A stretch of DNA of 42,624 nucleotides from an uncultured Halobacteriales archaeon (GTDB lineage Archaea > Halobacteriota > Halobacteria > Halobacteriales > PXRE01): positions 1 through 42,624 of the forward strand of contig CAYTAG010000006.1 in assembly GCA_964435625.1 (NCBI GenBank). The letters are read 5' to 3'. A program made the translations under genes and the position numbers. Shown here one piece after another: positions 6,919 to 42,475 of the stretch (positions are counted from its first letter, which is position 1; each line of letters opens with the position of its first letter). Below the pieces are notes generated by a model. It saw nothing but the letters and a program-made list of their open reading frames with translations. It was not told the DNA's origin and ran no database searches.

Positions 6919-6989
6919 GCGTCGGTAGTGTAGTGGTATCACAGGACCCTGCCACGGTCCTAACCCGGGTTCAAATCCCGGCCGACGCA
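6919..6989 (+). tRNA. tRNA-Gly (GCC), no intron, CCA not encoded
   Basis: Acceptor stem GCGTCGG/CCGACGC, anticodon arm GGACC-CTGCCAC-GGTCC, T-loop GGTTCAAATCC, followed by TTTT. Confidence 0.96.
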
Positions 6990-16530: not shown

Positions 16531-16902
16531 GTGCCCATCGACATCGACCGGTTCGAGTCGACCCCGGAGAGCGACCTGGCCGCCGAGGGCGACGGACCGA
16601 CCAACGCCGAGCGAATCCTGTCGTTCCTGGCCGCGAACTCGGACAAGGCGTTCACTCCGAAGGAGATCCGCGAGGCGACGGACGTCCCGCGAGGGAGCGT
16701 CGGCGTCGTGCTTTCCCGACTCGAAGAGCGGGGCCTGGTCCGCCACCGCGGCGAGTACTGGGCCGTCGGCAACGAGGAGGCCGTCGCCCGCGAACTTTCG
16801 GCCGCGACGACTGCGCGGGCCGCCGGAGAGCGGTTCGGCCCGGAAGACCCGGACGAGTGGGGTCCAGGCGTCGAGACCGGCAGGGACGCGGGGGAGGAGT
16901 GA
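16531..16902 (+). CDS. Winged-HTH protein, probable antitoxin
   Basis: AERILSFL...FTPKEIREATDVPRGSVGVVLSRLEERGLV; abuts the PemK-like gene. Confidence 0.75.
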   Translation: MPIDIDRFESTPESDLAAEGDGPTNAERILSFLAANSDKAFTPKEIREATDVPRGSVGVVLSRLEERGLVRHRGEYWAVGNEEAVARELSAATTARAAGERFGPEDPDEWGPGVETGRDAGEE

Positions 16903-17237
16903 ATGGTCTACGGTCGCGGCGACGTGTGGTGGGGCCCGGCACCGCACAAGGACACGCCGGCGTATCGACCGTGGCTGATCGTGAGCACCGACGATCATCC
17001 GTTCGCTGACGTCGAGTGCATCGCCGCGGCCATGACGACTCAGCGCCATCCCGAAGGAATCGACGTTCCAGACGGCGCGTGGATCGAATGTGGATCGGAC
17101 GCTCGGTCCTGCGTTTCGCCGTGGTACGTGGCGACGTTCAAGTACGAGTCCTTCGCCCGGAAGCAAGGTCGCCTTTCCGAAGGTCTGGTCAGCGAGGTGG
17201 TCGGGGCCCTGCAGGAATACGTCCCGACGCTGTTTGA
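16903..17237 (+). CDS. PemK/MazF-like toxin; in-frame stop missing
   Basis: RGDVWW...RPWLIVS...AAAMTT. The frame stays open through the next gene, and a TGA at 17235-17237 is one base out of frame. Confidence 0.7.
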
Positions 17238-17302
17238 GATCACCGCTCGTCGGCCGTGCACCCCCGCGAGGACGCTAAACCCTTCCAGCCCCAAGCCACG
17301 CC

Positions 17303-18570: not shown

Positions 18571-18626
18571 ATTGTTATACTAGTATGATATATTTAAAAT
18601 ATTCTATATCACTAGTATTAATATAG
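18571..18626 (+). promoter_or_regulatory. Very AT-rich promoter/operator upstream of the lanthipeptide precursor
   Basis: ATACTAGTATGATATA...TATATCACTAGTAT imperfect inverted repeat with TATA-like TTTAAAA and TTAATA. Confidence 0.6.
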
Positions 18627-18647
18627 GTCGGCTCAAAGAACGAGTGC

Positions 18648-18833
18648 ATGTCAGTTGTAATCAACGGACGTGCGAGCGCACAGAGCACGAAGAAAGACTC
18701 GTTCGACAGCGAGTTCGACCTGGCGAAGTTCCTGCCACCCTACGGCAAGGACGAGGACCTGACCGCGGAGGCGGCGGCAGACACGTGCAGCTGGACCTGC
18801 TCGTGGACCTGCTCCTGGACGAGCACCTACTGA
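18648..18833 (+). CDS. lanA: Class II lanthipeptide precursor (LanA)
   Basis: Leader contains KKDSFDSEF (resembles the haloarchaeal KxxYDxxF leader motif); Cys/Ser/Thr core DTCSWTCSWTCSWTSTY; directly upstream of lanM. Confidence 0.88.
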   Translation: MSVVINGRASAQSTKKDSFDSEFDLAKFLPPYGKDEDLTAEAAADTCSWTCSWTCSWTSTY

Positions 18834-19121
18834 AAGGTGAGACGAACGAACGGCCGTGAGGGCGACGCTTGCGGCCGCGTTGCTTCCGGCGTTCGTTCCG
18901 GACACCGTTTTCCGTCGATCCGGACGTCGGTCGCCGGATGGACTCGAAACGACGACATTCGATGCCCGAATACGTACGTATCCCGACTGTAAGCGGCGGC
19001 GGATCGCCGGTTGTTTCCGACCGTGCGGGCGCGTTCTCGGCCCGAAACCACGCGAACGACCGAATTTCGGCCTGGCCCGGGATTCCAGAGCGAGCCCGAC
19101 GCCAGGAGGTTCCAGCAAACG

Positions 19122-22100
19122 ATGGCTAACGGACTCACCGAGCGACAACGACGGGCGATAGCGGGACGGGCACGGACGCTGTTCGAACGGATCGATGGCC
19201 CCTCGAACGTGGCCGGCGAGGACCCTGCGATCCCGCCCGACCGGATCATCGCGGAGTGGAAGGACCTGTATCCGGACGAGCGAGCGTTCCGGGACCGGCT
19301 CTCCAGGGACGGGCTGACGGAAGCGACCGTCCGGGAGGCGGTCGCCGCGACGAGCTGGCCGGCGGAGGAACCGCTCCCCGACTGGGTCGACACCGTCGAC
19401 GCCCTGGTCCAGCACGTCGAGACTGCTCGACCGGGCGGTCGAGGCGACGTCACGGTCCCGGAGGAAACGCCGTTCGCGGAACTGCTGGTCGTCGTCGCCG
19501 AGTTCGCACGGGAACGGCTCCCCGAGGGGACCGTCCCCATGGACGCGGCGTCGCCGGCGGTCGAGTGGCTCCTCTCGCGGCTAGAGATGGTGTCCCTCCG
19601 GCCGACCTACGTCGAGTTCAAGAGTTTCGTCGACCACTACGATCCCGACCTCGCGGCGGCCGATCCCGACGAGTTCGAGGAGCCACCGACGGAGTACTAC
19701 GAGGAGTTCGTCGAGGCCGTCTTCGACGGGGGGTTCCGGAACGTCTGCCTGGAGTACCCGGTCCTGGCGCGGTTCCTCGGCCTGGTGATCGACGCCTGGG
19801 TCGACGCCGTCGTGGAGGTCTGCCGACGGATCGACGCCGACGAGGCCGCGTTGCGGTCCCGGTTCGGCGTCGAGGGCGACGTCACCGAACTGGAACCGCT
19901 CAGCAAGGACACCCACGGCGGTGGCCGGGTTCCGTTCCGGGTCCGCTTCGAGACCGGGGCGGTCGTGTACAAACCGAGGCCGGTCGACGCCGGTATCGCG
20001 TTTCACACCGTCCTGGAGCGACTCGACGAACACCTCCCGACGCCGTCGTTCGAGTCCCGGAGCTACCTGTCCCGGGAGGGCTACGGCTGGATGGAACCGA
20101 TCCGGTTCCGGGAACCCGACGACGAGGCCGCCCTCGACCGCTACTACGAACGGGCGGGGGCGATCCTGTGTGTCGCCTACGCGCTCGGGTTCACCGACTG
20201 CCAGCACGAGAACCTGATCGTCGACGGCGAACACCCGACGATAGTCGACGGGGAGACGGCGTTTCACCCGTGGCTCGATCCCGACGAAACCCCGGTCAAA
20301 TCGGCCGTCAAGCACGTCGTCGACCGGACCGTCCTGCTCACCGGGTTGCTCCCGTGGGACGTCGGGGATCCCCGCAAGACCGACGAACGGGGGATGGTGT
20401 ACACGGCCGGGTTCGGGTCGGAGGGCGAACAGGTGGTCCTGCAGGACCGGTTCGTCCCGAACGTCGAGGCGATCAACACCGACGTGATGTCCATCGAACC
20501 CGCGGAAGTGCGGATCCACCCCGAGGACAACGTGCCGACGGTCGACGGCGAGGCACATCCGCCGGGCGACCACGCGGACGCGTTGATCCGCGGGTTCGAG
20601 CGGACCCACCGGACGATCCGGGAGTTGCACGATTCCGGGCGGTTTTTCCCCGAGATCGCGACCCGGGACCTGATCGACGGCGTCGAGAACCGGCTCGTGT
20701 ACCGGTCGACGATGAAGTACACGATGCTCCGGCAGTCGGCCGTCGCCAGGAATCCGCTCCGGGACGGGGTCAGGCTGTCGGTCGAGTTCGACGAACTCGC
20801 CGTCCCGTTCGTCGACGCCGAATCGGATCGTCCCTGGCGGATCCACGAGGCCGAGCGCCGGTCGCTCCGCCGGTTCGACGTGCCGCGGCTGACGGCCACC
20901 CCCGGGGAGCGGACGCTCTCGCACGACGGGAAGGCGCTGGGCGTCGGGGCCGACGAATCGGGCTACGACCGGTGTCGACGCAGGCTCGATTCGATGGACG
21001 CCGCAGACGGGCGGCGGCAGTCCTGGCTGATCCGACGGATCGTCGACCCGGGGACGCCGGACCCGGCGACGGCGTCGTCCGTCGAACTGACCGGAACGGA
21101 CCTCGAACGCACGGCGAGCGCCCTCTTCGAGGACGCCCGGGACGCCGGGATCGAGACGGCCGACGGGACCGAGTGGTTCTCGGTCTGTCAGGCACCCGGG
21201 GCGATCAACTTCGTCCGGGCGAACCCCTCGCTGTTCTGGGGGCGGGGCGGGATCGCCCTCGCCGCAGGGGCGCTGTACGAGGTGACGGGCCAGCGACGGT
21301 ACCGCCGGTCCGTCGAGGAACTGCTCGACCCGGTGGTCGACGACGTCGCCGACGGCGGCCTCTCCCTGGGGCTGGGCGGGACCAAAGGACTGGGGTCGGT
21401 CGTGTACACGCTGTCGGTCGTCGCCGACCTCGTCGAGGAAGCGCCCTACCGCCGCGCCGCGCTGGAGGCCTCGCGGTCGGTAACCGGGGAACTGCTCGCC
21501 GGCGACGACACCTTCGACGTCATGGAAGGCGCCGCGGGAACGTTGCTCGGACTGCTCGCCCACTACGAACGGTTCGGGGGCCGGGACGTCCTCGACCGCG
21601 CCATCGCCTGTGGCGAGCGCCTCCTCGAGGCCCGGGTCGACGTCGACGGCCACCGGGTCTGGCTGACCATCGACGACGGGGCCCCGCTCACGGGCTTTTC
21701 CCACGGGGCCAGCGGGATCGCGTACGCGCTCGCCCGACTCGGCGCGGTCGCCGACGAGTCGCGGTTCGCCGACGCCGCCAGGGAAGCGCTCCGGTTCGAG
21801 GACGCGCTGTTCGACGCCTCGCGGACGAACTGGGCCGACTCGCCACGGCAACGGGAGTACCAGGATCGGTGGTGTCACGGCCGGACCGGGATGGCGCTGG
21901 CCCGGATCGGGATCGGCGACCGTCTCGACGACGAGTCGCTGGTCGCCGAGGCCGGGGAGTTGCTGGCGGCGACGGCGAACGACGACCCGGCACACCTCGA
22001 CAACCTCTGCTGTGGGAACTTCGGTCGAACCGGGGCGTTGCTCGTGGCCGCGCGCCGGGCCGGCGGCGAGGTCGAGGCCGCGACCGAACTCGCGGGGCGG

Positions 22101-22259
22101 TGCGTCGCCCGCCGGGAGCGCGACGGTGCGCTGTCGCTGCCCGGCCACGACGAGTCCTTCGTCAACCCGACGTTCTTCGACGGCGTCTCCGGGGCCGCCT
22201 ACGCGTTGTTGCGGCTCCGGGACCCCGACGCCTTGCCCTGCGTCCTCCTGCTGGAGTGA
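19122..22259 (+). CDS. lanM: Class II lanthipeptide synthetase LanM
   Basis: Dehydratase motifs DTHGGGR, VYKPRP, DCQHEN, DGET, RxTxxY; LanC-like cyclase motifs GFSHGASG, WCHG, CCG. Confidence 0.95.
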   Translation: MANGLTERQRRAIAGRARTLFERIDGPSNVAGEDPAIPPDRIIAEWKDLYPDERAFRDRLSRDGLTEATVREAVAATSWPAEEPLPDWVDTVDALVQHVETARPGGRGDVTVPEETPFAELLVVVAEFARERLPEGTVPMDAASPAVEWLLSRLEMVSLRPTYVEFKSFVDHYDPDLAAADPDEFEEPPTEYYEEFVEAVFDGGFRNVCLEYPVLARFLGLVIDAWVDAVVEVCRRIDADEAALRSRFGVEGDVTELEPLSKDTHGGGRVPFRVRFETGAVVYKPRPVDAGIAFHTVLERLDEHLPTPSFESRSYLSREGYGWMEPIRFREPDDEAALDRYYERAGAILCVAYALGFTDCQHENLIVDGEHPTIVDGETAFHPWLDPDETPVKSAVKHVVDRTVLLTGLLPWDVGDPRKTDERGMVYTAGFGSEGEQVVLQDRFVPNVEAINTDVMSIEPAEVRIHPEDNVPTVDGEAHPPGDHADALIRGFERTHRTIRELHDSGRFFPEIATRDLIDGVENRLVYRSTMKYTMLRQSAVARNPLRDGVRLSVEFDELAVPFVDAESDRPWRIHEAERRSLRRFDVPRLTATPGERTLSHDGKALGVGADESGYDRCRRRLDSMDAADGRRQSWLIRRIVDPGTPDPATASSVELTGTDLERTASALFEDARDAGIETADGTEWFSVCQAPGAINFVRANPSLFWGRGGIALAAGALYEVTGQRRYRRSVEELLDPVVDDVADGGLSLGLGGTKGLGSVVYTLSVVADLVEEAPYRRAALEASRSVTGELLAGDDTFDVMEGAAGTLLGLLAHYERFGGRDVLDRAIACGERLLEARVDVDGHRVWLTIDDGAPLTGFSHGASGIAYALARLGAVADESRFADAAREALRFEDALFDASRTNWADSPRQREYQDRWCHGRTGMALARIGIGDRLDDESLVAEAGELLAATANDDPAHLDNLCCGNFGRTGALLVAARRAGGEVEAATELAGRCVARRERDGALSLPGHDESFVNPTFFDGVSGAAYALLRLRDPDALPCVLLLE

Positions 22260-22421
22260 CGGGCGGCTGGGCGACCGACCGCCGAACGGGGCGTGGCGGG
22301 CCGGGAAGTGCGATCGGACGCCCCGGGACGTCGCGTGTGACCCCCCGTCGGCTGTCGTTGCGACGAGTTTGCGGTAGGTCACGCCCGCAGTACGTCCCCC
22401 GGTAACCCTCGCCGGAACCGC

Positions 22422-27877: not shown

Positions 27878-28034
27878 CCTCGATTGTGTCCCGGGGCCGG
27901 GAAAGTGTATTTCGGTTCGAAGCAGCCACTCGTGAGGGTCTGTCCCGGACTGACGTGCGGTTGACGACGCCAGCGAACGGGTTACTGATCGACCGACCCG
28001 TCGACCGACGCGACGTATCGTCGAACGAATCCGT

Positions 28035-28157
28035 TACCTCTACCAGGCGATGGTCGAGATACGGAACTCGCGCCTCCAGGGAGTGGTTCATCGTCGAGCG
28101 GTCAACTTTGTGGAGAAGATCGTCCGGGAGCCAGTACGTAATATCGAACTGTGTCAT
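28035..28157 (-). pseudogene. C-terminal fragment of an asparagine synthetase (AsnB)-like gene
   Basis: WLPDDLLHKVDRSTMNHSLEARVPYLDHRLVE. Confidence 0.7.
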
Positions 28158-28646
28158 ATTGTGGAAAAGGGGGCGGATTCGTCAGTAGAAACACAGTCCG
28201 GCAGTTTTCGCCAACCGGTTCGAGGGAATCTCGTCACGCCGAGCACGACGGCGAGAAGCTTCGCTGAGGACGCAGCGATGGGCGAGAGCGGCCCTTCGAG
28301 CGGGACGAAACCTGGATCCCCACGTCACCGCTACCCGCGAGACGAACGACCAGTCTAGAGCGTCCGCCGATGAGCGGACGCCGATCGTTGTGGACGTCGG
28401 AGAAGCGAGCCTCGTCACGGTGTCACCGTGACGACCACGGTTCTCCGGGTCGCCCCCGATCATTGGCCGACGACGGCGAAGCCGTTCGTCGGCTCCGCAA
28501 AACCGACTGCATCCCACGGCAGTTGAAGAGCCCGTCGTCAAACAGGAGTCTCGTCTCGACGTCGAGCCCCGCATAGACTCACTCGCCGTCGGTCAGGACA
28601 GCGGTTTCGTCGACCGCGACCCGGACGGCGACGCCCGTCAGAGCGT

Positions 28647-30308
28647 TCACATACTTTCCGTTAATTCGATCCCGAGAAGGTCCATGTATCTCCGAAGGAC
28701 CAGTATAGTGACCGAGACGATCGACAACCGCTTCCGTTCCTCATCACTTCCGACGATTTGATACTCGCTGTAGTAGGAATTGAACGTGTTCGCTAGATCG
28801 AAAGCCTCGCCAGCGATCACGCTCGGTTTTGATTTTGAGGCTGCCTCCGATACCGTCATATCGAACCTGATCAACTTATCGAGTATTTTTTGCTCCTGCT
28901 CGTTCGGATCGGACATCGGTTCGACACGCAGGTCGCTCTCGGCGTTCTCTAACAGGGACATACAACGCGAGTGCGTGTACTGGAGATACGGACCGGATTT
29001 CCCTTCGAACGAGAGGACCTGATCCCAGTCGAACGTCGAATCTGTTTCACGAGATCCCGACAACCAGGAGAACTTGATCGCGCTAATGCCGACTCTGGTG
29101 GCTGCCTCCTCCTCGTTCTCGACCTCGCCCTCTCGCGATTCGATAATCGACTTGACGCGGTCGATTGACTCCTGAATGAGATCTTCAGCCCTGACGATTC
29201 TGCCCTCTCTGCTCGACATTTGCCCGTCCTCGAGACTCATCAGCCCGTAATTGACGTGTTCGCAACGGTCCGGGTCACAGATTCCCAGCAATTCCGCACT
29301 CTTGAATAGCTGTTTGAATCGATGCCGCTGCTCGTTTCCGACCACGTAGAGGACCTTTTCCGGATCGTACCTATCGATTCGGTGTCGAAGGGCCGCTAAA
29401 TCCCGAGTGGCGTAGTTCGTCGTGCCGTCCGACTTACGGATGATCATGTTCGTGAGACCGTACTCTTCGAGTTCGACAATTATCGCTCCCTCACTTTCCG
29501 TCGCGATGCCCTCCTCGAGCGCTTCCTGAACGATTTTCTGCCCCTCGTATACGAATTCGGATTCCCCCGAAATATTTTCGAATTCCACGCCCAAGATGTC
29601 GTATATATCATTAAATTCCTCGATGCTAATCTCACGAAACATGCTCCAGGTCTCCCTTTTCTCCTCGTCCCTGTTTTCGAGTTCCTGGAACCACTTCCGG
29701 GCCTCCTCCTCGAGCGATGGGTCGTCCTCGGCCCTCTCATGAAACTGGACGTACAACTCGTATAATGAATCGATTTTTTTCTCCCGAATGGTTTCTATAT
29801 CCCCCCATTCTTCGAACGCGACTCCGAGTTTGCCAAACTGAGTCCCCCAGTCGCCCAGGTAATTAATTCCGGCGACGTCGTATCCCAGATGTGTGTATAT
29901 CCGTTTCAGTGAGTCCCCGATTATCGTAGTCCCCAGGTGACCGATGTGCATAGGTTTGGCAACGTTAGGAGACGAGTAATCGATTACAATCGTCTCGCCA
30001 CTATCGGGATCCCCGTCCAGCTGTTCGAGGAATCTATCGACGTTTTGACCGACGTAGTCCCAGTCGAGATCGATGTTGACGTACTGACGGCTACTGCTTA
30101 CGGATTCGACCGGATCGTATCCCCTCAATCTCTCAGCTAAGATATCACTTAGTTCCGAGGCGATCGCCGTCGGATCCTCACCCAGCGTGAAACACGGAAT
30201 TGCGATGTCCGCGTAGTCGGATTCCTCCTCGAAAGATAGTTCCGAACCATCTATCCTCTCAGGTATTTCCTCCCTAACCTTTCCCTCAACGTCCGAGATG
30301 ATGGTCAT
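28647..30308 (-). CDS. argS: Arginyl-tRNA synthetase, probably a horizontally acquired paralog
   Basis: DYSSPNVAKPMHIGH, NYLGDWGTQFG, KSDGTTNYATRD, MSSREG, GPYLQYTHSR; markedly lower GC than flanks. Confidence 0.9.
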   Translation of the reverse strand: MTIISDVEGKVREEIPERIDGSELSFEEESDYADIAIPCFTLGEDPTAIASELSDILAERLRGYDPVESVSSSRQYVNIDLDWDYVGQNVDRFLEQLDGDPDSGETIVIDYSSPNVAKPMHIGHLGTTIIGDSLKRIYTHLGYDVAGINYLGDWGTQFGKLGVAFEEWGDIETIREKKIDSLYELYVQFHERAEDDPSLEEEARKWFQELENRDEEKRETWSMFREISIEEFNDIYDILGVEFENISGESEFVYEGQKIVQEALEEGIATESEGAIIVELEEYGLTNMIIRKSDGTTNYATRDLAALRHRIDRYDPEKVLYVVGNEQRHRFKQLFKSAELLGICDPDRCEHVNYGLMSLEDGQMSSREGRIVRAEDLIQESIDRVKSIIESREGEVENEEEAATRVGISAIKFSWLSGSRETDSTFDWDQVLSFEGKSGPYLQYTHSRCMSLLENAESDLRVEPMSDPNEQEQKILDKLIRFDMTVSEAASKSKPSVIAGEAFDLANTFNSYYSEYQIVGSDEERKRLSIVSVTILVLRRYMDLLGIELTESM

Positions 30309-30743
30309 CGAGTCGGACTTTAGGTCAGATACATTATTCAGTTCTTCGGTATGGGGGCGGCCAATTAGCAGTTCGGAGAGGCCATGACACTACCGTCCAT
30401 AATCCACCATCCCTTTCGCTTGAAGCGCTTCGTCCCGTACGTTTCTCGGGTGGCGCCGGCAACCTACTTCGTCCTCGGAATTCGAACGAACCGGTTGCGA
30501 AACAGCGGAGGGTGGGACAACCGGGCAAACTCGATCCGTTCAACGACACCGGGCTGCTGGCTCAACCAACCGTCGGTTGATGACTGACGGGAGGGCAGGA
30601 TAGCAGAGAACGTATCTCTCCAAAAAGGGACCGTCGGTCACCGGCCCCGTCGAGTGGCCACCATCACGTTCCTAACTGAATGAAAACGATACTTTACGAG
30701 ACTCCCTGACCAGACGGAGTTTAAACGAGGTTCGACGGAATTT

Positions 30744-30903
30744 GAGGTTGAGGCGGATTTGAACCTGAGCCAGACGGTCCGGGCGTGCGGCCCCACGTCC
30801 GTTCGGCCGTTCCGGGCTGCGACTGGCAGGGTTCAAATCGCCCAACGCTACGATTTGCTCCTCACGTCCGTTCGTCGTAAAATCGTAGTGGGTTGGGGCG
30901 GAG
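30744..30903. repeat. Degenerate tRNA-Val-like 3'-end (att) copies within stem-loops
   Basis: Minus strand reads GTTCAAATCCGCCTCAACC and TCCGCCCCAACCCA, plus an inverted GTTCAAATCGCCCAAC; directly before an integrase. Confidence 0.55.
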
Positions 30904-30980
30904 ACAGGTCGTGATGCGTACGACCCCTTCGCCGCGGTGGGCGGGCGGTGTGGGCCGTCTCGCGGGGTTCCGTGAGACCC

Positions 30981-31976
30981 ATGCCGACGGACCGAGACGA
31001 ACTGGAACCCATCGATCCGCGCACCGCGCAGCAACTGTACCTCGACCACAAGGCCACCGAGTGCACCGAGTCGACGGTCAGGAATCACAAGTACCACACC
31101 AACTACCTCGTCGAGTGGTGCGAGGCGAACGGCGTCGACAACCTGAACGACCTGACTGGTCGGGACCTCCAGCAGATCCGGCTGTGGCGCAAGGAGGTCG
31201 GCGACATCAACCTCCTGACGTTGAACAATCACATGAGCACGTTGCGGGTGTTCCTGAAGTGGGCCGCGTCCATCGAGGCCGTCCCGGAGAACCTCTACGA
31301 CAAGGTGATGGTGCCGCGCGTGTCGCCGGAGGACGAACAGGCCGACGAGACGCTGGATAGCGAGAGCGCGCAGGCGATTCTGGATCACCTGTCGACGTTT
31401 CATTACGCGTCGCTGGAGCACGTCCTACTGGCGTTGCTCTGGGAGACGGGGATGCGGATCGGCGCGGCCCGGTCGCTGGACGTCGGCGACGTGGACGTCG
31501 ACGGGGAGCGCGTCGAACTCGTTCACCGGCCCAGCGAGGGGACGACGCTGAAGAACGGCAGTGGTGGCGAGCGGCCAATTGCGATCAGTCCAGACCTGGC
31601 GGGCGTGCTGGACGATTACGTCGGGAGTGTACGCCACGACGTGACCGACGAGTACGGGCGCGAGCCGCTGTTCACGTCCGAGCAGGGGCGGCTGAGTCGG
31701 AGTACGTTGCGTCGAGTGGTGTACAAAGTGACGGCCCCCTGTTTTCGGAACGAGCCTTGCGCCGAGTGTGCTGACGGCGAGTCGAAGTGCGGTGAGGCGG
31801 TGAGTCCTCACGCGATCCGGCGAGGAAGTATTACGCACTACCTGGCGAACGACGTGCCCGTGGAGATCGTGAGTGATCGGATGAACGTGAGTCGGAAGGT
31901 GCTGGACGAGCACTACGATCAGCGGTCGGAGGAGGTGAAACTGGAGCAGCGGCGGGGGTATCTCGAAGAGGTGTAG
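30981..31976 (+). CDS. Tyrosine recombinase/integrase (haloarchaeal SNJ2-like)
   Basis: GMRIG, LKNG, PHAIRR, HYD catalytic residues. Confidence 0.92.
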   Translation: MPTDRDELEPIDPRTAQQLYLDHKATECTESTVRNHKYHTNYLVEWCEANGVDNLNDLTGRDLQQIRLWRKEVGDINLLTLNNHMSTLRVFLKWAASIEAVPENLYDKVMVPRVSPEDEQADETLDSESAQAILDHLSTFHYASLEHVLLALLWETGMRIGAARSLDVGDVDVDGERVELVHRPSEGTTLKNGSGGERPIAISPDLAGVLDDYVGSVRHDVTDEYGREPLFTSEQGRLSRSTLRRVVYKVTAPCFRNEPCAECADGESKCGEAVSPHAIRRGSITHYLANDVPVEIVSDRMNVSRKVLDEHYDQRSEEVKLEQRRGYLEEV

Positions 31977-32053
31977 AGTAGATCAAACGCCCCCGTTGAA
32001 ACCCTCAGATGGGGACAGCCCCCAGCAGTTGCATAGAGTGACGAATACAGGGG

Positions 32054-32812
32054 TCACTCCCACCACGTCTTCCCGCCGGGGTGAGCGTAGAGAATATCTG
32101 TCGACCCCTCCTCGGCCTCGGTTGTGAACCACTCGTCCACAGTCCACCCTAATTTTCGGTTCTTTCGCTTCGTTGCGCCCTCTCCATCTAGTAACTCGGG
32201 TTGGAAGAGGTAATTGTAGTGAGAGAAGACAATCAAGTACGTGTCAGTCGTCGGTAGTTGGTTGAGTCGTCTCAGGTCGGTTTCGAGTTTACGGTTCTGC
32301 GTATCGAGTTTCTCAATCGCTTCCGTACTCCGCATCTCCGATTCGGTGGCCTTCCGCAACGTGTCGGTATCGAAGTCCGACGAGATGACGTTCTGGTTCG
32401 TGACGAACTTCAACTCGAACGCCGCAGAAACGTCTCTCTCGTCGTATCGCTTCGATCCTCCATTCCACCTGACGGGAAAGCTAAGTTCCTGATCAAAAAC
32501 CACCACGTCTATTTGTTCGTTCGGGGTGTCCGGAGTAGTAAGGTTGACCTCTGGATGGACCCGAGAGATCCGTCCACCCTGGTCTGGGCGCCGGTCAACT
32601 ATTTCGTCTATGTATGGTCGTTTGTACTGTGCATAGTTTCCATCGTCCGTCAGCGGCGGTGTGGGACAGGTGGTAAATAGTTCTCCGTTAGAATTGAGTT
32701 CCTGATGCAAACGTTCAACGAGATAGCATTGCATATCTGCTTCCATCGTCACGTCCATCGGACGTTTGATGAACATGTTTCCGAGCGAGTCAGCAGCACC
32801 TCGATAATCCAT
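32054..32812 (-). CDS. Hypothetical protein, putative PD-(D/E)XK nuclease
   Basis: EADMQ...HPEV...IDVVVF...FELKF; low GC. Confidence 0.55.
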   Translation of the reverse strand: MDYRGAADSLGNMFIKRPMDVTMEADMQCYLVERLHQELNSNGELFTTCPTPPLTDDGNYAQYKRPYIDEIVDRRPDQGGRISRVHPEVNLTTPDTPNEQIDVVVFDQELSFPVRWNGGSKRYDERDVSAAFELKFVTNQNVISSDFDTDTLRKATESEMRSTEAIEKLDTQNRKLETDLRRLNQLPTTDTYLIVFSHYNYLFQPELLDGEGATKRKNRKLGWTVDEWFTTEAEEGSTDILYAHPGGKTWWE

Positions 32813-32988
32813 AGTCGAAGTAATGTGAGTGGTCACAAAACAATAGTGCCCTCTTCTGAGTGGCACTGCCGGAAACACCCTCCGTATTCAGCACTCTGTC
32901 ATTGGCGGTATTGGGCTTCATGATTGTCATGTTATCTTTTCTCATCCTGATGATCAGTATATATTGACTAGGGATTCGACAAATTCAT

Positions 32989-34044
32989 TCAGAGAGACGA
33001 GTATTCGTCAAGACATTTCTCCAATTCGTCTCGCCGCCGCTCTGCCTTCCGCTCCTTGGACCGCTGATCGTAATGCCGCTTCAGCACAGGTACGGAAACG
33101 TCGACCCGACCGCTCAACAGCTCCACCGGCACGCCTTTGTCCAACTGCCGCATGATGGCCCACTTCCGGAGCGGATGCGGACTGAACGACGACGGACATT
33201 CACTTGCGTTCGTACTTTCCGCCGCCGAACACGACGAGATCTCCCGTCCGTGCGGACACTCATCCGCAGACGTACACGGCCGCGTCATCTTGTAGAAGTC
33301 CCGCCGGATCGTCGGCAAAGACACCCGGCCTGATCCCGTCGTCAGCAATGACTCCCGACCGAACGTGTCGATGACCGATTCACGAGGTCCGTCTACGTAA
33401 TCACTGAGTAGTTCCTGAAGATCGTCCGAGACATTGACGATACGCTCACTGTCGCGCCCGTTCTTCAACGGCGTCCCGTACTCGTCCGTCCTTTCAGGCC
33501 GATGCCGCAAGTGCACCTGCGCGGCGTCGAAATCTACGTCCTCCAGATCGATAGCGCGAATAGCGCCCATCCGCAGACCGATCTCGGCAATTAGTTCGAA
33601 TTCGAGGTGGTGCCGGGCCGCGTACTCGAACTTCCCGTGGTAGGTTCGGACGGCCGCAACGGCCTCGTCGTCGGGCACCTCGTCACACACCTCCTCGTCC
33701 GGCGCCACGTTTGGGAACGGAATCTTCTCACTGAGGTCGGGCTCGACCGCGTCGATGGCCTCGCAGAACTCCAGGAACGGCCCGAGGACGCCGAGCGCGC
33801 CGTTGAGACTGACCGTGTTCACGCCAGTCTCCTCTTTCCGCCAGTTCTTGAACCGCAGCAGGTCCCGGCCACCGAGGTCGTTCAGGTTCTCGATGCCGGC
33901 CTGGTCGGTCCAGTCGACGAAGATGCCCAGCGCCGAGGCGTGCTTGCGCCGGGTCGCCACCCGCGTGTCGTCCTGGCGGTGCTCCAGGTACAGCCGGCGG
34001 GCCTCCGCGGGCGACAGCGGCTCCAGGCTCACGTCCTCGCGCAC
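32989..34044 (-). CDS. Second tyrosine recombinase/integrase
   Basis: GLRMG, LKNG, PHPLRK, HYD; the GTG start at 34044 is approximate. Confidence 0.9.
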   Translation of the reverse strand: MREDVSLEPLSPAEARRLYLEHRQDDTRVATRRKHASALGIFVDWTDQAGIENLNDLGGRDLLRFKNWRKEETGVNTVSLNGALGVLGPFLEFCEAIDAVEPDLSEKIPFPNVAPDEEVCDEVPDDEAVAAVRTYHGKFEYAARHHLEFELIAEIGLRMGAIRAIDLEDVDFDAAQVHLRHRPERTDEYGTPLKNGRDSERIVNVSDDLQELLSDYVDGPRESVIDTFGRESLLTTGSGRVSLPTIRRDFYKMTRPCTSADECPHGREISSCSAAESTNASECPSSFSPHPLRKWAIMRQLDKGVPVELLSGRVDVSVPVLKRHYDQRSKERKAERRRDELEKCLDEYSSL

Positions 34045-35605: not shown

Positions 35606-38600
35606 ATGGACCAACGGGTTTCGGGGGCCGTCGCGGTCGCCATGGCGGTGCTGGTGGTGACGGGGACAATCGGCCCAGCACTGGCCGCGGGTGGTTTCGG
35701 TGAGCAACGGCAGTCGAATGTCGTCGATCCGTCGGTCGTCTTCAGCGACGACGGGGCGGCGCTCGATCACCGGCTCCACGCCTACCGGATTCTCGATCAA
35801 GCAGACGCACAGCGCCACCTCGACGCGCTGAACGCGACGTTCGAGCACGTCGTCGACGAAAATCGCGTGAACGCGAGCCAGGTGTTTGCCACGGACAAGC
35901 GCATCGTCGCCCAGACACAGGCGCACCGCCCGGACGTCGGCGAACAACTGGTCGCCTCCGACCGCGTACTGGCCGAGACCGTAGTCGCCGACGCCCAGCG
36001 CGTCCGCGAGGGGATGGATCGCCGGAACCTCTCCTACGACGAAGCAGCCGTCAACGAAAGGCTGGCGAACGCCAGTGCGGCGCTCCAGCAGGGCCACAAC
36101 CACGTCGCGGGTAACGCCTCGCTCGTGGCGGCCGTCGAGTCGTACCACCGCGCCTGGCGGCACGCCCAGCGCGCGATGGATCTGATGCAGGCCGCGGTCG
36201 AGCCCCAGGTCGAGATCACCCGGCGGACGGACCCACCGCACAACGGGACCATCGAGTACACCGTGAAGGGCGTCGTCTGGGACGTCCGCTCGCACCGGAT
36301 GGCCGGAACGCTGACGCTCAACGGCGAACAGCGGAGCCTCGCGCTCGATACGTCCACGGTCCCCGGCGAGAACGTGACGTTCTCGACGACCGTCACACTG
36401 GAGGAGAAACGCAACTGGATCAACGTCTCGGTCTCGAATCCGCTGGAGTACGTCGATTACAGTCGGCGACCAGCGACGCCCGGCGGGCCAGGGAACGGCC
36501 AGCAGGGCAATGGTCCGCAGGGCCCCTCGAACGGGAACGAGACGGGACCGCCGGACGACCGGCCAGGAGGGCCACCTGACGACAGAGGAGCAGGGCCGCC
36601 AGATGGCAAAGGCGGAGGCCCGCCGGATGACAAGGGAGGGGGACCGCCAGATGAGAGGGGAGAAGGCCCACCTGATGACAAAGGAGAAGGCCCGCCCGAC
36701 GATGCGGGCAACGGTCCCTCGGACGATCAGAGCCAGAATTCGTCGAAGGGAAGCGGGCAAGGACCACCGGACGAGCCCGGAAACGATGACCCTGCGAATG
36801 ACGGGGGAGACGGCTCCAGTGGCGAGGCAGGGCAAGGAAACGCAAGTGAGGGACAGCGTGGCGAGGGCAACCAAGGTACCGGGGCCGATGAGGAGACCGG
36901 CAACGGGGAGGGACCAGGAAAAGGATCGGACGCCGGGAGTGGCTCCGCCAACGACTCCAGCGGGGCCGAGACGAACGGCAATAACGAAAGCGATGGTGGG
37001 GAAAACAATGCCGGACCCAGTAACGGGTCGTCGAACAGCTCTGGCGGCCCAGGGAACGGCCAGGGGAATGCCAACGCGCTCGCCAACGACCCCGGGAGCT
37101 GGTCTTCGACGAGTCCCAGGGCAGGCCACGGGTTCGGTGGCGTGGACACGATGGCCTACGGGGCCATGCTGGCTCCGCCCGAATCCGATGCGGTGCAAGT
37201 CGGTTTCGACGTCCTGAAGCTAGACGCCGACGGCCTCCCGGACCGCTACGAGGAGACCGTCGTCGGGACGGATCCGCTCGATACCGATAGCGACTCGCGG
37301 CTTACCGCCCGCAACGAGTCCGACGTCGGAACTATCGACGGGGCGAAGGACTTCGACGTGGACGGGCTGGCGACCTACCAGGAGTACCGGATCGGGACGG
37401 ATCCGCTGTCGAACGACACGACCGGCGACGGTCTCGAAGACGGCTTCCAGGTGCTGGTCGTCGGAACGGATCCGCTCGTCAACGACACCGACGGCGACGG
37501 GGTGGCGGACGCCCAAGAGGATCCCGACGGTGACGGGTTGACGCTGCTCGAAGAGCAGGAACACGGGACCCATCCGCGACTAAACGATACCGACGGCGAC
37601 GGCCTGACCGACGGGGAGGAAGTCCACGAGTACGACACCGATCCGCTAGACCCGGACAGCGACGGCGACGGATTGCTCGACGGCGAGGAAATCCGTCTGG
37701 ACCAGGACCCGCTGGCTGCCGACTCGGACGGCGACGGCGTCCCGGACGGCAACGAGACGTACACCACGACGGTGACAAACGACTCCAGTGAGGTCACCGT
37801 GACGGCGACCGGCGAAGGCGTCGTCGCCGACGGCCTTCACGTCCGGCACACGCCGACGGACTACGGGGGCAACGTCACGGCCGGGCCGATGGTGCGGATC
37901 ACCAACGACACGGCCGTCGAGGGAGCCACGGTGACGATGCCCATCGACGAGGGTGTGGACCTATCGGCGACGAACGTGACGATCTACACCTGGGACCCCG
38001 ACGACGAAGGGTGGGTCCCCCTGGAGACGACGGTCGACGCCGGGAACCGCACGGCGAGCGCGACCGTCTCGTCGTTCTCGTACTTCGCGGTGATGGACGA
38101 AGGGGCGAGGACGAAGGCCACCAGCCAATATGCCCAACCGGGGTGGCCGGCCCTGGAGACGTTCGACGACCTCGCCGACTGGACGGCAAGTGGCAACGGG
38201 ACCGTCTCGCTCGACGACGAGGTGGTGACCGTCCAGAGCCAGGAGGGGACCTCCGGCGACGGCGGTGGTGGCAACGACGGGAGTGGCGGTGACGACGGCG
38301 GTTCCGGGGGTAGCGGCGGCGGGGATTACGAACCGTACGACGAGAACTGGGAACTCCCGGGCACCGGCCCGGGTGGCAACGACGGCGACGACGGTGATGG
38401 TGGCGATGGTAGCGACGACGACGGGGACAGCGGCGACGGTGGTGGCAGCGAAGACGGGAGCGGTAGCGGTGGGAACGACGGAAGCGGCGACGACGGAAGC
38501 GGCGGCGGGGACAGTGGAGGGGACGGCGGGAGCGACGATGGATCGGGGGACGGCGACGGAACGAGCGGTCCCACGAACGCGTCCATCTCTCGGACGGTTT

Positions 38601-40861
38601 CGCTCCCGGAGACGACCGCGTCCATTGCGATCCAGGTGCGAGTGAAGGCCACGACGGGCGGCGTCGGCACGGCCGAAGTCGTCCTGGTGGGTGGTGGCGC
38701 CAGCGCGCAGGTCCTCGACCTGGGATATGGCGAAACGACGGATGGCTGGGTGACCCGCCGGATCTCGCCGGCCGCGGGGTCGTTCGCGGGCGAAGAGGCC
38801 ACGCTCACCGTGCGGACCGAGGGCAACGCGACCGTCCAGGTCGAGTACGTCGCGGTGGTGATCGACTCGACGGGCAGCGGCCTACCCGACGCGGTCGAGC
38901 GCCTGGACCTCCGGATGCCGACCGGCGGTCCCGGGGTCGCACACACGCTCCTTGACTTGGACCCGTCCCTGGCGGACACTGACGGTGACGGGTTGCGCGA
39001 CGGCGAAGAAGTGGACGTCGCCTGGGAGATCGTCCCCGACGCGGGGGAGTGGACGCTGTACGGCGAGGCCGTCGACGCCACCTCCCATCCCGGGCGGGTC
39101 GACACCACGGGCGACGGCCTCACCGACTCCCAGCAGGTCGAGGGGTGGTCGATCCGGGTCGTCGACGAGCACGACGACGCCACGGCGCTGATGGACGTGG
39201 TGAACGACCCCGACGCCGACGAGAACGTCTCGCCGTTCTTCGAGACGCGGTCGGTGACGGCGAACCCGCTGGTGAACCACACCGACGACGATGGGCTGAG
39301 CGACGCCAGGGAGTTCGCGCTCGGGACGGACCCCGGGCGGGAGGATACCACCGGCGACGGGATCGACGACGACGAGGCGCTGGCGCTGGAGACCGAGGAC
39401 CCGACGGTGTTCACGACGACCGGGCCGGAGGCGAGGCTGCTGTGGTACAACCAGGCGTCGGAGATCACCCTCACGGACCTGAAGTGGTACTTCCAGTACC
39501 GTTACAAGGTCGAGGATTCGGTCGGCATCCGGGAGTTCGAAATCTCGCGGCAGGGCACGACGTTCGACAGTGCCGCGGGCGGGAGGGCGAACGAAGTGTA
39601 TCGTACCAGTACGCGCGAATCGTTCATGGAGGGGGCGTTCACGGTCCTGCGCGGGTCGGTCGCGGTCGTCGAGGCAACCGACGTCTACGGGAATACCCGC
39701 AAACAGGTGCTCTATAGCCAGACTTCGTCGTTCGGCCACGCGCTGAAGGACGTGTCGCCGCTGGGCGCCGGGATGGTCTCGGGGGCCAGTCACTTCGCCG
39801 CGGAACTGCCCGAGTTCATCTGGCTGGCCATCACGGATCCGTTCGGGGTCTACGACGCCTTCAAGTCGTTCGTGGGCCAGCTCGGGCCCGATCTCATCGA
39901 GTTGCTGATCGAGAGCGTCCAGCGGACCCAACACCTCGACAACCCCTTCAACGAGAACCCCGACTCCGAGGAGTACAAGGAGTACGAACGCGGGTGGTAC
40001 GTCGGCTACGGGGCGCTGGCGGTCGCCGAGCTCGCACTGGGCCTGAAGGCGCTGAAAGGGATCGCGAGCGTTTCCAAACTGAAACAAACGTTGCAGACGA
40101 CGGCGAACCGCGTCGACGAGGTTAAGGCGCTGGTGAAGTCGGGAATGCCCCGGAAGACGGCGAAGATTACGAGGGAAGCTACGGATGGTGGTCCAGGTAG
40201 GGATTATACTCGGTTGGTGAGGGACCTCGAAACGGCGGGTGCAGTGAAGAACGTAAAACAGCTTGCCAAGGATATCGGACCTCGGTTCGAAGATCTGGAG
40301 CCGTCACATCCCCAACTTGGAACGTTCCTGCAGAAATACGGGGACAACGGCGTCGAGGTTATCAATAAACTGGATGATGCCTTTGATGCACACCCATTGC
40401 TGGGCGCTCCCGATGAGATTACCAACCGAATCATCCAAATGACTGCCGATTTCGACGTCAATCCGAGTGCGTTGATTCGCGTCGTTGACAAGGGCCATAA
40501 TCTTAAACGACTCGAAGAGTTACTCCGGACCAAAGCATCGGGAAGATGGACGGCTGGCCGACCTGGTGATCGAAACGCAAACTTCAACAAGCATTACTCG
40601 GACCACGCTCAAGAATGGAGTCCACCCTTGAGCAAGTCAGAATACAGGAGCAAGGCAAGAACCCTTGCAAACCAGAGAGACGGCGTTGAGATATATTACC
40701 AGATCGGGCAAGATCCATCGAATTTGATCGTGTATAACCGTGCTGCTAACGAGTTCGTGACACTTAATGCGAAAGGTGAGATTCAAACGTTCCACAGACC
40801 CAACCCTGGGCAGGTCGGGAAGTTAGTTAGGAATGGAAACGCAATACCGATCAAAACATAA
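35606..40861 (+). CDS. Large secreted polymorphic-toxin-like protein with DxDxDG repeats and a C-terminal RNase-like toxin domain
   Basis: Sec-type signal ending GPALA; GPPDD repeats; many DTDGDG(L) Ca-binding repeats; hydrophobic pre-toxin helices; low-GC tip KHYSDH...EY...YN...NEF...GEIQTFHRP. Confidence 0.8.
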   Translation: MDQRVSGAVAVAMAVLVVTGTIGPALAAGGFGEQRQSNVVDPSVVFSDDGAALDHRLHAYRILDQADAQRHLDALNATFEHVVDENRVNASQVFATDKRIVAQTQAHRPDVGEQLVASDRVLAETVVADAQRVREGMDRRNLSYDEAAVNERLANASAALQQGHNHVAGNASLVAAVESYHRAWRHAQRAMDLMQAAVEPQVEITRRTDPPHNGTIEYTVKGVVWDVRSHRMAGTLTLNGEQRSLALDTSTVPGENVTFSTTVTLEEKRNWINVSVSNPLEYVDYSRRPATPGGPGNGQQGNGPQGPSNGNETGPPDDRPGGPPDDRGAGPPDGKGGGPPDDKGGGPPDERGEGPPDDKGEGPPDDAGNGPSDDQSQNSSKGSGQGPPDEPGNDDPANDGGDGSSGEAGQGNASEGQRGEGNQGTGADEETGNGEGPGKGSDAGSGSANDSSGAETNGNNESDGGENNAGPSNGSSNSSGGPGNGQGNANALANDPGSWSSTSPRAGHGFGGVDTMAYGAMLAPPESDAVQVGFDVLKLDADGLPDRYEETVVGTDPLDTDSDSRLTARNESDVGTIDGAKDFDVDGLATYQEYRIGTDPLSNDTTGDGLEDGFQVLVVGTDPLVNDTDGDGVADAQEDPDGDGLTLLEEQEHGTHPRLNDTDGDGLTDGEEVHEYDTDPLDPDSDGDGLLDGEEIRLDQDPLAADSDGDGVPDGNETYTTTVTNDSSEVTVTATGEGVVADGLHVRHTPTDYGGNVTAGPMVRITNDTAVEGATVTMPIDEGVDLSATNVTIYTWDPDDEGWVPLETTVDAGNRTASATVSSFSYFAVMDEGARTKATSQYAQPGWPALETFDDLADWTASGNGTVSLDDEVVTVQSQEGTSGDGGGGNDGSGGDDGGSGGSGGGDYEPYDENWELPGTGPGGNDGDDGDGGDGSDDDGDSGDGGGSEDGSGSGGNDGSGDDGSGGGDSGGDGGSDDGSGDGDGTSGPTNASISRTVSLPETTASIAIQVRVKATTGGVGTAEVVLVGGGASAQVLDLGYGETTDGWVTRRISPAAGSFAGEEATLTVRTEGNATVQVEYVAVVIDSTGSGLPDAVERLDLRMPTGGPGVAHTLLDLDPSLADTDGDGLRDGEEVDVAWEIVPDAGEWTLYGEAVDATSHPGRVDTTGDGLTDSQQVEGWSIRVVDEHDDATALMDVVNDPDADENVSPFFETRSVTANPLVNHTDDDGLSDAREFALGTDPGREDTTGDGIDDDEALALETEDPTVFTTTGPEARLLWYNQASEITLTDLKWYFQYRYKVEDSVGIREFEISRQGTTFDSAAGGRANEVYRTSTRESFMEGAFTVLRGSVAVVEATDVYGNTRKQVLYSQTSSFGHALKDVSPLGAGMVSGASHFAAELPEFIWLAITDPFGVYDAFKSFVGQLGPDLIELLIESVQRTQHLDNPFNENPDSEEYKEYERGWYVGYGALAVAELALGLKALKGIASVSKLKQTLQTTANRVDEVKALVKSGMPRKTAKITREATDGGPGRDYTRLVRDLETAGAVKNVKQLAKDIGPRFEDLEPSHPQLGTFLQKYGDNGVEVINKLDDAFDAHPLLGAPDEITNRIIQMTADFDVNPSALIRVVDKGHNLKRLEELLRTKASGRWTAGRPGDRNANFNKHYSDHAQEWSPPLSKSEYRSKARTLANQRDGVEIYYQIGQDPSNLIVYNRAANEFVTLNAKGEIQTFHRPNPGQVGKLVRNGNAIPIKT
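36547..36730 (+). repeat. Intragenic 24-bp tandem repeats encoding GPPD(D/G/E)(R/K)xx
   Basis: GPPDDRPG GPPDDRGA GPPDGKGG GPPDDKGG GPPDERGE GPPDDKGE GPPDDAGN. Confidence 0.85.
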
Positions 40862-40868
40862 CATAAAC

Positions 40869-41465
40869 ATGGATAATAGACAAGAAGAGTTGGAATCCAG
40901 GCTTGACCATACCATCAATCAATTCAAAGAGATGTTGTCTGAGTTAGAGAAAATAACTGATGTATACGAAATCGAGACGTACGATCGAATTACCGTCGCG
41001 ACCACGATCTATCTTTCATATGAGTGTGAATTTCTGCTCGAAGAACTTCGCAAAGCCAATGAAGCGTCCGAATCCACGAGTCATACCTTCGCATCATTGC
41101 AAGAGTTACTAGATCATCTACTGGACCAGAAGTCATACCGAGAACAAGCAATCAAAGAACTGAAGACCAGGGTTGATAACTATCCGAGAAACATTTGCCA
41201 TTTTCTCGAATTAGATCCCATCTCCATCGAGTTAGAAAATACTCTTAGTGGACGGGACGTCATCCAGGTACTTCTTTTAGAACTCGAGGAAGACGAGTTA
41301 GACAATGAACGTGAGAAAGTTAATGCACTCGATGAAGTCCTTAGATGTCGATATGAGGTCCAGATCGAGACGATATTAGACGAATATAGTGATATCGAGA
41401 AATCATACTATCCGGGGTCGTTCTGGTGGCGACATCCCTCAGATGTCGCGGCTGAACTCGACTGA
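40869..41465 (+). CDS. Putative cognate immunity protein
   Basis: Starts 7 bp after the toxin stop; same low GC; acidic and helical; ends YYPGSFWWRH. Confidence 0.65.
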   Translation: MDNRQEELESRLDHTINQFKEMLSELEKITDVYEIETYDRITVATTIYLSYECEFLLEELRKANEASESTSHTFASLQELLDHLLDQKSYREQAIKELKTRVDNYPRNICHFLELDPISIELENTLSGRDVIQVLLLELEEDELDNEREKVNALDEVLRCRYEVQIETILDEYSDIEKSYYPGSFWWRHPSDVAAELD

Positions 41466-41561
41466 GTGGATTGAGTTGTCTGTCTCGCCTCCGGCGCCCA
41501 AGAGATCAATGGTGTCTCCGGTGCCGCAGAATTCGACAGCCGACTGTCGCGAGTGTTCGCT

Positions 41562-42475
41562 TATATCGACGAGGTCGGCCCGCTGATCAAAGCCGGGGCG
41601 AACCGGAAGACGGCGAAGATCACCCGGCAGGCGGTCGGGGACGGTGGTTCCCTCGACGTCGATTATACAGCGGTCGCGGGTAAATTGGGTGATCAGGGCT
41701 TCCAGGCGGGGAAACTTGACGAGGCGATCACGCGGTTGAGCCAAATCGACAGCCGGCACCTCCGGGCGCTGTCGCCCGACGACCAGGCGCGGCTGGCGGC
41801 GCGGTTGGTAAGCGTCCGGGACGGCGGGCAGGTCCGACGGTTCGTGAACGCGCTCGACGAGACGAGCGACGTCCGGCGGGTGCTTGAGGGGGACGTCCCA
41901 GCAACCAAGCGGATGAGCCGGTTGTGGGCGAACAAGGACAAGACGTCGGGAAGGATCAACGGATTACGGTACCGCCACGTCGATCCCGATCTTGAAGCCA
42001 GTGACTTCGTTCAAATTGCCCAGCAGGTGGAGTTGAAAAACACCCAGTTAATTGTCAAGCGAGGGGATGAACTTCGCTTCTTACAAAGAGGCACATTAGA
42101 GGAGGGCTGGAAGCACATTAAAGTCCGCCACATAGAGGCCTCATACAAATTAGATGCAAAAGAGGGTACAAGTTTCTTCCCGCTCGGCCGGACCGTGAAG
42201 GGTAATAAACTTCCAGATACTATGACGAAAGGCGAGGTGAAGATATGCTCTATGATGCAATTAAAGATGGTCATCCGTCACCTCAGGGCCAAAAGACCAA
42301 ATATTACTTCCAGCCGAAACAAAATGGGTATCCTGATAGTGGAATCGTCGACATGAGGATTTTCGTGTTACCAGACGGAATGATCGAAACTGCGTACCCA
42401 CTTAGCGGAGAGGCTGTCAAAAAGTGGGTTCCTGAGTTGAATGATGGACAAGGTGGACTGGTGGATACTGTATGA
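41562..42475 (+). pseudogene. Orphan alternative toxin C-terminal module (EndoU/BECR-like RNase), frameshifted near 42241
   Basis: Begins IDEVGPLIKAGANRKTAKITRQAVGDGG (homologous to the main-protein junction); GWKHIKVRH...TSFFP, then IETAYP in a shifted frame. Confidence 0.7.

Follow-up and report, generated by a model that had tools for sequence, protein, structure and literature searches.

A locus of an uncultured Halobacteriales archaeon probably encodes a three-module relative of archalan alpha

What would a class II lanthipeptide synthetase make of a precursor whose core consists almost entirely of three identical Cys-Ser-Trp-Thr modules, and would that product be a new kind of peptide? 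The question is raised by the lanA/lanM locus on contig CAYTAG010000006.1 (assembly GCA_964435625.1) of an uncultured Halobacteriales archaeon, of which the whole stretch of 42,624 nucleotides analysed here is referred to hereafter as the window. We consider it fairly likely that these two genes form a working class II lanthipeptide locus within the archalan alpha lineage, LanM closing three rings in tandem along the core. The genes and domains concerned are as follows.

18648..18833, forward strand: lanA, an open reading frame (ORF) with an ATG start, 61 residues, MSVVINGRASAQSTKKDSFDSEFDLAKFLPPYGKDEDLTAEAAADTCSWTCSWTCSWTSTY.
18648..18782, forward strand: lanA leader, residues 1-45, with the consensus MSVA..K..[FY]D.EF; the leader/core junction is placed from alignment.
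18783..18833, forward strand: lanA core, residues 46-61 and the stop codon; one Thr, three CSWT modules, then STY.
19122..22259, forward strand: lanM, class II lanthipeptide synthetase of 1045 residues, assigned by Pfam, TIGR03897 and alignment with LicM2.
About 19755-20894, forward strand: LanM dehydratase domain (Pfam DUF4135, PF13575).
About 21222-22250, forward strand: LanM LanC-like cyclase domain (Pfam LANC_like, PF05147).

The enzyme downstream of lanA is intact, as the original prediction had it. Both domains are recognized (DUF4135/PF13575 at 4.9e-85, LANC_like/PF05147 at 6.6e-50), the curated NCBIfam model TIGR03897 (lanti_2_LanM) is passed at twice its cut-off (5.2e-184; 613.6 bits against 304), and residues 188-1044 align with the solved structure of LicM2 (6ST5, E 8.8e-42). 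The cyclase motifs FSHG, WCHG and LCCG stand opposite FSHG, WCHG and LCHG of LicM2; the lanM frame has no internal stops, and lanA and lanM alike are free of stops and frameshifts. This frame ends at 22259 and is listed with a TTG start at 19011; we prefer the ATG at 19122 (MANGL...) because the ortholog described below and the paralogs begin at an equivalent M...(E/Q)RR.IAGRARTL. LicM2 and CylM (5DZT), both bacterial LanMs, share the two-domain architecture, whereas their sequence similarity to the window LanM is low and their leaders and cores are unrelated. The zinc-ligand motif also differs, CCG in the window LanM versus CHG in LicM2; we take CCG to be the three-cysteine zinc site of ProcM-type enzymes.

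A scan of GTDB genomes with the window LanM returned one close relative, a Halobacteriales metagenome-assembled genome (L017, the same-genus genome G401) whose LanM is 70% identical and which carries a lanA in the equivalent position. From the first cysteine (Cys47) onward the two cores are identical at 15 of 15 residues despite three synonymous codon differences (one of them an AGC/TCC serine switch), while the leaders differ by 11 amino-acid changes in 44 aligned codons and a two-codon indel; it is on this account that we regard the locus as real. By our own arithmetic the chance of such a split of replacements (0/15 versus 11/44) is about 0.03, and the comparison is the signature expected of a translated peptide with its core under purifying selection. 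Residue 46, directly before the first cysteine, is Thr in the window and Pro in the ortholog. The genus has a third genome, 66% complete, which gave no LanM match, and the exact LanA of neither the window nor the ortholog occurs in the protein collection searched. Contigs of a second study carry a near-identical copy of lanA (9 differences in 340 bases), which is not informative on core variation.

The composition given earlier for the last 17 residues of LanA (3 Cys, 5 Thr, 4 Ser and 3 Trp) is correct for the ORF at 18648..18833. The CSWT repeat occurs a single time in the six-frame translation of the entire 3.67-Mb assembly. At the DNA level Tandem Repeats Finder reports just 2.5 copies of a 12-bp unit with 88% matches, the codons varying among the three repeats; the three-module pattern is thus preserved at the level of the peptide and is no product of fresh DNA slippage.

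The leader places this precursor in a larger set. There are 10 LanM genes in the window's assembly (84% complete, 3.67 Mb; genome G000, contigs C5, C6, C10, C76, C85, C112, C152, C218, C237 and C244) and 11 in the sister genome G401, and beside nine of the former 10 lies a small ORF with the same leader type; most LanM loci of both genomes have their own LanA, in which this common leader precedes an unrelated core. An alignment of 12 LanAs gives the consensus MSVA....TT....K..FD.EFD...PA..C, and the shorter form MSVA..K..[FY]D.EF is common to nine same-genome paralogous LanAs, the ortholog and archalan-alpha-type LanAs. The KxxYDxxF-like leader motif proposed earlier is therefore genuine, its K16, D20 and F23 being invariant in 11 aligned related LanAs and recurring in the 12-LanA consensus. 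As an observation on the side, the LanM at positions 4197-7174 of contig C76 matches the window LanM in two pieces (residues 69-638 and 683-1045), its open frame is just 651 residues long, and it may be frameshifted or split.

Among the LanAs that share this leader is the precursor of archalan alpha (AlnA-alpha/AlnM-alpha of Halorussus salinus YJ-37-H; leader MSVA..K..YD.EF). Its core is given as GCGFTCSPFSSW, and the peptide was isolated in intact bicyclic form; by nuclear magnetic resonance it contains a Cys2-Thr5 methyllanthionine (MeLan) and a Cys6-Ser10 lanthionine (Lan) that do not overlap, with only two dehydrations and Ser7 remaining serine (PMC10105419). Of 401 class genomes, four contain an exact match to a degenerate pattern built on eight residues of this core, and one of the four (G206) encodes the exact 12-residue archalan alpha core. 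When 11 LanAs are aligned (the window, six relatives and the four with the archalan alpha core motif), M1, K16, D20, F23, C47, T50 and C51 are invariant, the first CSWT-C of the window lies on CGFT-C of archalan alpha, and the leader/core junctions (marked by a slash) coincide: ..RD/GC in archalan alpha precursors, ..AD/TC in the window and ..AD/PC in the ortholog. Both cores thus begin with an invariant C-x-x-T-C, its first cysteine standing one residue past an acidic or charged leader end, and both are short, carry a C-terminal aromatic residue and come from haloarchaeal hosts.

The enzymes agree with the precursors. In a LanM tree of 14 rows (built without the split C76 LanM, the LanM of genome G034 and 10 further LanMs of G401) the window and its ortholog group at 100/100 support and join the LanM of genome G021 and three archalan-alpha-type LanMs in a six-row clade (99/98), outside which fall eight paralogs from the window's own genome. 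The archalan-alpha-type LanMs share the WCHG and CCG motifs with the window enzyme, which in its cyclase domain has 60% identity to the LanM of the exact-core genome. Differences exist: three identical CSWT modules followed by STY in the window core stand against a single C-x-x-T and a single C-x-x-x-S module in archalan alpha, the prediction is for three rings as opposed to two, there are three Trp residues rather than one, and lanA lies upstream of lanM in the window and downstream of it in the exact-core genome.

Elsewhere, too, the periodicity of the core has counterparts. An exhaustive phmmer search over 1.84 billion representatives yielded four matches at E <= 1e-3, among them P0003, which has the same leader as the window LanA and a core with cysteines at a spacing of four and Thr/Ser at i+3. 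A search of 41 related genomes found, in a member of a different family (G021), a LanA core of three C-x-x-T modules with a three-residue tail, and a four-sequence LanA profile run over 251 class genomes matched five of them, G021 encoding four periodic LanAs on one contig with 2, 3, 3 and 5 C-x-x-S/T modules. The G021 and P0003 precursors resemble that of the window in their common leader, three cysteines four residues apart, Thr/Ser at i+3 and a hydrophobic three-residue tail, and the G021 LanM belongs to the window's clade; their modules, however, differ among themselves, whereas those of the window are identical. Conservation among the (C-x-x-S/T)3 relatives is limited to the Cys and the i+3 Thr/Ser, i+1 and i+2 being variable (Ala, His, Gly and Val all occur at i+1 in the wider (C-x-x-S/T)n family), and among the periodic LanAs compared the Ser-Trp filling is particular to the window's genus. 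The four-residue Cys/Thr periodicity is, judging by these sequences, a family trait of haloarchaeal LanAs.

Because leader, C-x-x-T-C core start and LanM clade all match the archalan alpha type, and with the periodicity recurring in other haloarchaeal LanAs, the suggestion of a probably new scaffold finds no support: the window peptide is probably an uncharacterised relative of archalan alpha with a predicted third ring, and neither a new scaffold class nor a new kind of system. As a peptide it is nonetheless distinct. Its core is identical to no lanthipeptide in the main texts of PMC10105419 and PMC12144867, the core string is absent from the full texts searched, and literature searches on archalan, medlan, archaeal lanthipeptides and the older family names brought up no description of it. 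The precursor of the ortholog may already be catalogued in the supplementary lists of 348 (PMC10105419) and 353 (PMC12144867) predicted archaeal LanAs, among which unclassified Halobacteriales are represented by LanMs.

Several further observations were made on periodic cores. The G021 array (L037, at 116500-136400 of contig C3, with L042-L044) comprises the periodic LanAs and one LanA of another type; it lies 14 kb from the sole LanM of that genome, and the interval contains an ABC-2 pair as well as a second ABC ATPase. Two proteins from short metagenome contigs, P0001 (151 residues) and P0004 (105 residues), have an NHLP/Os17-like leader that scores below curated cut-offs, followed by 4 and 2 repeated core cassettes, mostly C-x-x-I-T-C-S-W-T-C-S-W-T-G; they carry the CSWT module of the window and its Cys/Thr register on an unrelated leader. 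Scans of metagenome contigs gave no relative, either with an alignment of the two orthologous LanAs or with the NHLP-like precursors. The window LanA alone matched nothing when 5.8 billion proteins were searched by word index, and the 12-LanA profile gave 11 matches, namely eight LanAs of the window's genome and three others with different cores. Three sets of candidates were set aside. A degenerate DNA pattern for C-S-W-T-C-S-W matched in 7 of 401 class genomes, the six foreign matches lying in a 36-residue Arg-rich frame that we regard as an off-frame coincidence (in two of the six, those checked, a conserved ORF of more than 900 residues overlaps on the other strand). In the search of 41 related genomes a match in G407 (E 0.0097, within a 306-residue frame) was treated as noise, and look-alikes of P0004 in the ESM Atlas reach no more than 0.82 (a cinnamycin-family cluster), below the level that counts, and serve as a lead only.

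How, then, would three such modules be cyclised? From the genes, domains, motifs, conservation and family placement observed here we infer a mechanism that covers the dehydrated residues, ring connectivity, cleavage site, export and activity. The 61-residue precursor translated from lanA would be recognized by LanM through its conserved leader MSV..K..FD.EFD. The enzyme would then phosphorylate Thr50, Thr54 and Thr58 and eliminate the phosphates to give dehydrobutyrines (Dhb), to which the zinc-dependent cyclase domain, with its CCG-type ligands, would add Cys47, Cys51 and Cys55, each to the Dhb three residues downstream. The predicted product has three contiguous MeLan rings, each enclosing Ser-Trp, and a free S-T-Y tail. 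With three dehydrations its calculated [M+2H]2+ is 924.8444 as the 16-mer beginning at Thr46 and 874.3205 as the 15-mer beginning at Cys47. Proteases encoded elsewhere would cut the leader about one residue before the first cysteine, export likewise relying on genes elsewhere, and the roughly 16-residue tricyclic peptide so released would most likely inhibit competing haloarchaea as archalan alpha does. The help of outside proteases has a precedent in that proteases encoded outside the clusters take part in archaeal lanthipeptide maturation; larA and larM alone in H. volcanii gave a trace product, which the authors attribute to generic host peptidases (PMC12144867).

The direction and register of these rings follow from several considerations. 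Before the first cysteine the aligned LanAs variously have Thr, Pro, Met or Gly, so that no upstream partner of Cys47 is conserved and its reaction must be with a residue downstream; in the ortholog the proline at this position leaves Cys47 no upstream ring partner. The absence of conservation of the i+1 serine in the wider family fits a Cys(i)-Dhb(i+3) model. Stacked or interlocked rings, as first envisaged from the periodicity, give way here to three beads on a string, since the rings of the homologous archalan alpha are tandem and non-overlapping (PMC10105419); this preference is one of homology, and the predicted topology is accordingly three tandem, non-interlocked Cys(i)-to-Dhb(i+3) MeLan rings.

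A number of points pull the other way, two of which, concerning an exporter and the role of the product, are taken up further below. The kinase-like loop of the window LanM (about 20199-20216) reads DCQHEN against DFHNEN in LicM2, keeping the Asp and Asn and replacing His with Gln; a motif search matched this loop in 10 of 14 haloarchaeal LanMs, eight with Gln and two, of the archalan-alpha type and in this respect unlike the window enzyme, with His. None of the sequencing runs listed for the locus is RNA. For the third CSWT module there is no characterised precedent, archalan alpha closes its second ring from i to i+4 and not to i+3, and the adjacent Thr-Cys pairs could, by analogy with Ser2-Cys3 of archalan gamma, form minimal rings. 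Finally, the ortholog retains Ser48, Ser52 and Ser56 in spite of a switch of serine codon family, for which reason they may matter chemically, as dehydroalanines (Dha) or alternative ring partners, a matter that the simple model ignores.

These serines bear most directly on the idea that the rings overlap or interlock, either by Dha derived from Ser(i+1) joining the cysteine of the next module, or through Thr-Cys mini-rings combined with a long Cys47-Thr58 bridge. Intertwined topologies are indeed among the products of archaeal LanMs (archalan beta, pellan), and rings between adjacent Ser and Cys are known in archalan gamma (PMC10105419, PMC12144867); each Thr of the window core, moreover, directly precedes a cysteine or the tail. 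Yet the first module of archalan alpha forms Cys2-Thr5 and not the adjacent Thr5-Cys6, its two rings are separate, the i+1 serine is replaced by Ala, His, Gly or Val in the wider family, and the proline before Cys47 in the ortholog makes a forward ring onto that cysteine impossible there. We hold overlapping rings to be unlikely.

Tandem rings could also be an intermediate, the modules acting as a multi-copy cassette that is later cleaved into diamino-dicarboxylic (DADC) forms or single-ring CSWT units. DADC lanthipeptides arise by in-ring cleavage by proteases encoded outside the cluster, and a lanthipeptide of six residues, sallan A2, exists (PMC12144867). There are, however, no spacer or recognition residues between the CSWT modules, archalan alpha, the closest relative, was not cut in this way, and the non-identical modules of the relatives do not fit a cassette of identical products, which together make further processing a most improbable outcome.

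With the tandem arrangement preferred, the mature product can be set against other archaeal class II lanthipeptides. Archalan beta and gamma, the sallans, the ciblans, pellan and the DADC larlans and medlans share enzyme class, host group and short cores with the window peptide, and in sallan Cys1-Ser5 and ciblan Cys7-Thr9 the cysteine lies N-terminal to the dehydro residue as predicted here (PMC12144867). Their ring patterns, as described, are by contrast intertwined, disulfide-containing or cut inside rings, their cores differ, and no periodic core is found among those in the main texts of PMC10105419 and PMC12144867. Trp is under-represented in archaeal LanAs (PMC12144867), which makes three Trp in 16 residues compositionally unusual, and the C-S-W-T-C-S-W-T string recurs two to four times per protein in P0001 and P0004 behind their unrelated, NHLP-like leader. 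We offer a tentative and rather doubtful extension: the mature product might be three identical contiguous four-residue MeLan rings of reverse direction (Cys to downstream Dhb), each presenting Ser-Trp, a topology without characterised precedent in which the CSWT ring would be a portable Trp-presenting unit.

Does the locus need more than two genes? At the ortholog locus three genes (ABC-2 permease, ABC ATPase and universal stress protein) separate lanM from a homolog of the 345-residue lipoprotein found downstream in the window, where 162 bp occupy that place. This block of roughly 2.6 kb (6136-8700 of L017) is absent at 22260-22421 of the window. Homologous ABC-2 pairs flank LanAs of the clade in G021 (62% identity for the ATPase) and stand in G034 directly upstream of an archalan-alpha-like lanA (permease 66% identical). 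In the exact-core genome the best ABC-2 match is 48% identical and far from the locus. The first of the two points deferred above arises here: in the window's genome (84% complete) no close ABC-2 pair was found, the best matches being 49-53% identical and on contigs without LanM. The ABC-2 pair is a recurrent but dispensable accessory, and its absence from the window is a real difference from the sister species. The description of the locus as minimal thus stands for the window, where lanA and lanM by themselves make up the class II lanthipeptide locus, and fails for the clade, in which this is the exception, three related loci having an adjacent ABC-2 pair.

Loss of such an exporter or immunity pair might have left the locus intact yet silent, or on its way to being lost, with no active extracellular product. 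The three loci that retain the pair fit this idea, as do the several archaeal clusters that are silent in wild-type strains (PMC12144867). Set against it are the open frames of lanA and lanM with all motifs present, the near-identical copy in the contigs of the second study, the likewise missing close ABC-2 copy near the exact archalan alpha core, and the incompleteness of the window's assembly at just 84%; we judge silence to be very unlikely. The second deferred point concerns function, since the ciblan A2 and pellan clusters raised motility and rod shape in H. volcanii (PMC12144867). The tandem-ring peptide could by the same token serve as a signal for motility or cell shape instead of an antagonist, which would fit the lack of an immunity or transporter gene at the locus. 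Of the characterised peptides, however, those most closely related to it (archalan alpha with its analogs, archalan alpha2 and medlan B) are antagonists that inhibit haloarchaea (PMC10105419, PMC12144867), and a signalling role is to our mind improbable.

Two features of the DNA around lanA complete the description of the locus.

18572..18632, forward strand: AT-rich, promoter-like stretch with TATA-like runs upstream of lanA, a putative promoter.
18844..18911, forward strand: stem-loop with a T4 run behind it in the interval from lanA to lanM, a possible attenuator.

The 61-bp AT-rich stretch has a GC content of 0.23 (0.656 for the whole window), and the block AAAATATT within it is kept in the ortholog, the surrounding sequence having diverged. 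The stem-loop has a minimum free energy of -38.9 kcal/mol (z -2.04; 6 of 200 shuffles fold equally well), with its T4 at 18908, and its sequence is not kept in the ortholog; it is a weak candidate for an attenuator.

Within the window as a whole, a Pfam scan of 35 ORFs between 1169 and 41462 (a set from which small ORFs are excluded) returned no ABC, MFS or peptidase domain, several of these ORFs having no Pfam match at all, and for that set the earlier report of no adjacent transporter or protease is borne out. Upstream of lanA lie genes for an HTH protein, a PemK-like protein and a rhodanese/metallo-beta-lactamase (MBL) fusion; downstream of lanM, on the opposite strand, come the 345-residue protein (lipobox-like N-terminus, no family), a DUF7521 membrane protein and an HTH_20 regulator. 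The remainder consists of housekeeping genes (ribosomal proteins, MCH, ArgRS, RNase J) and an integrase region.

At 16531-17300 (forward strand) the stop of the HTH (MarR_2-like) gene is directly followed by the start codon of the PemK/MazF-like gene, and the two, just upstream of the rhodanese-MBL gene, may form a toxin-antitoxin-like pair; a 534-residue frame starting at 16903 is an Arg-rich read-through, probably not real past about residue 130. GC falls to 51-58% at 28000-33000 and 40000-42624, a tyrosine integrase lies at 30948-31976 and a 1751-residue protein with a bacterial TSP3 repeat at 35606-40861, and these regions may be integrated or foreign segments. The sole tRNA found in the window is tRNA-Gly (6919-6989).

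About two dozen archaeal lanthipeptides have been characterised, with archalan alpha as the reference anti-archaeal one, and the locus described here would naturally extend that scaffold to three rings. The way its core is cyclised is readily predicted and tested, a working expression route existing in Haloferax volcanii H1424 with pTA1228, by which 13 archaeal clusters were expressed (PMC12144867), and the perfectly repeated core is a clean substrate on which to ask how one LanM sets ring direction and register. A strain with six lanthipeptide clusters has been termed a prolific producer (PMC10105419); given their 10 and 11 LanM genes, both the host organism and its sister species may prove an unusually rich source of peptides of this kind.

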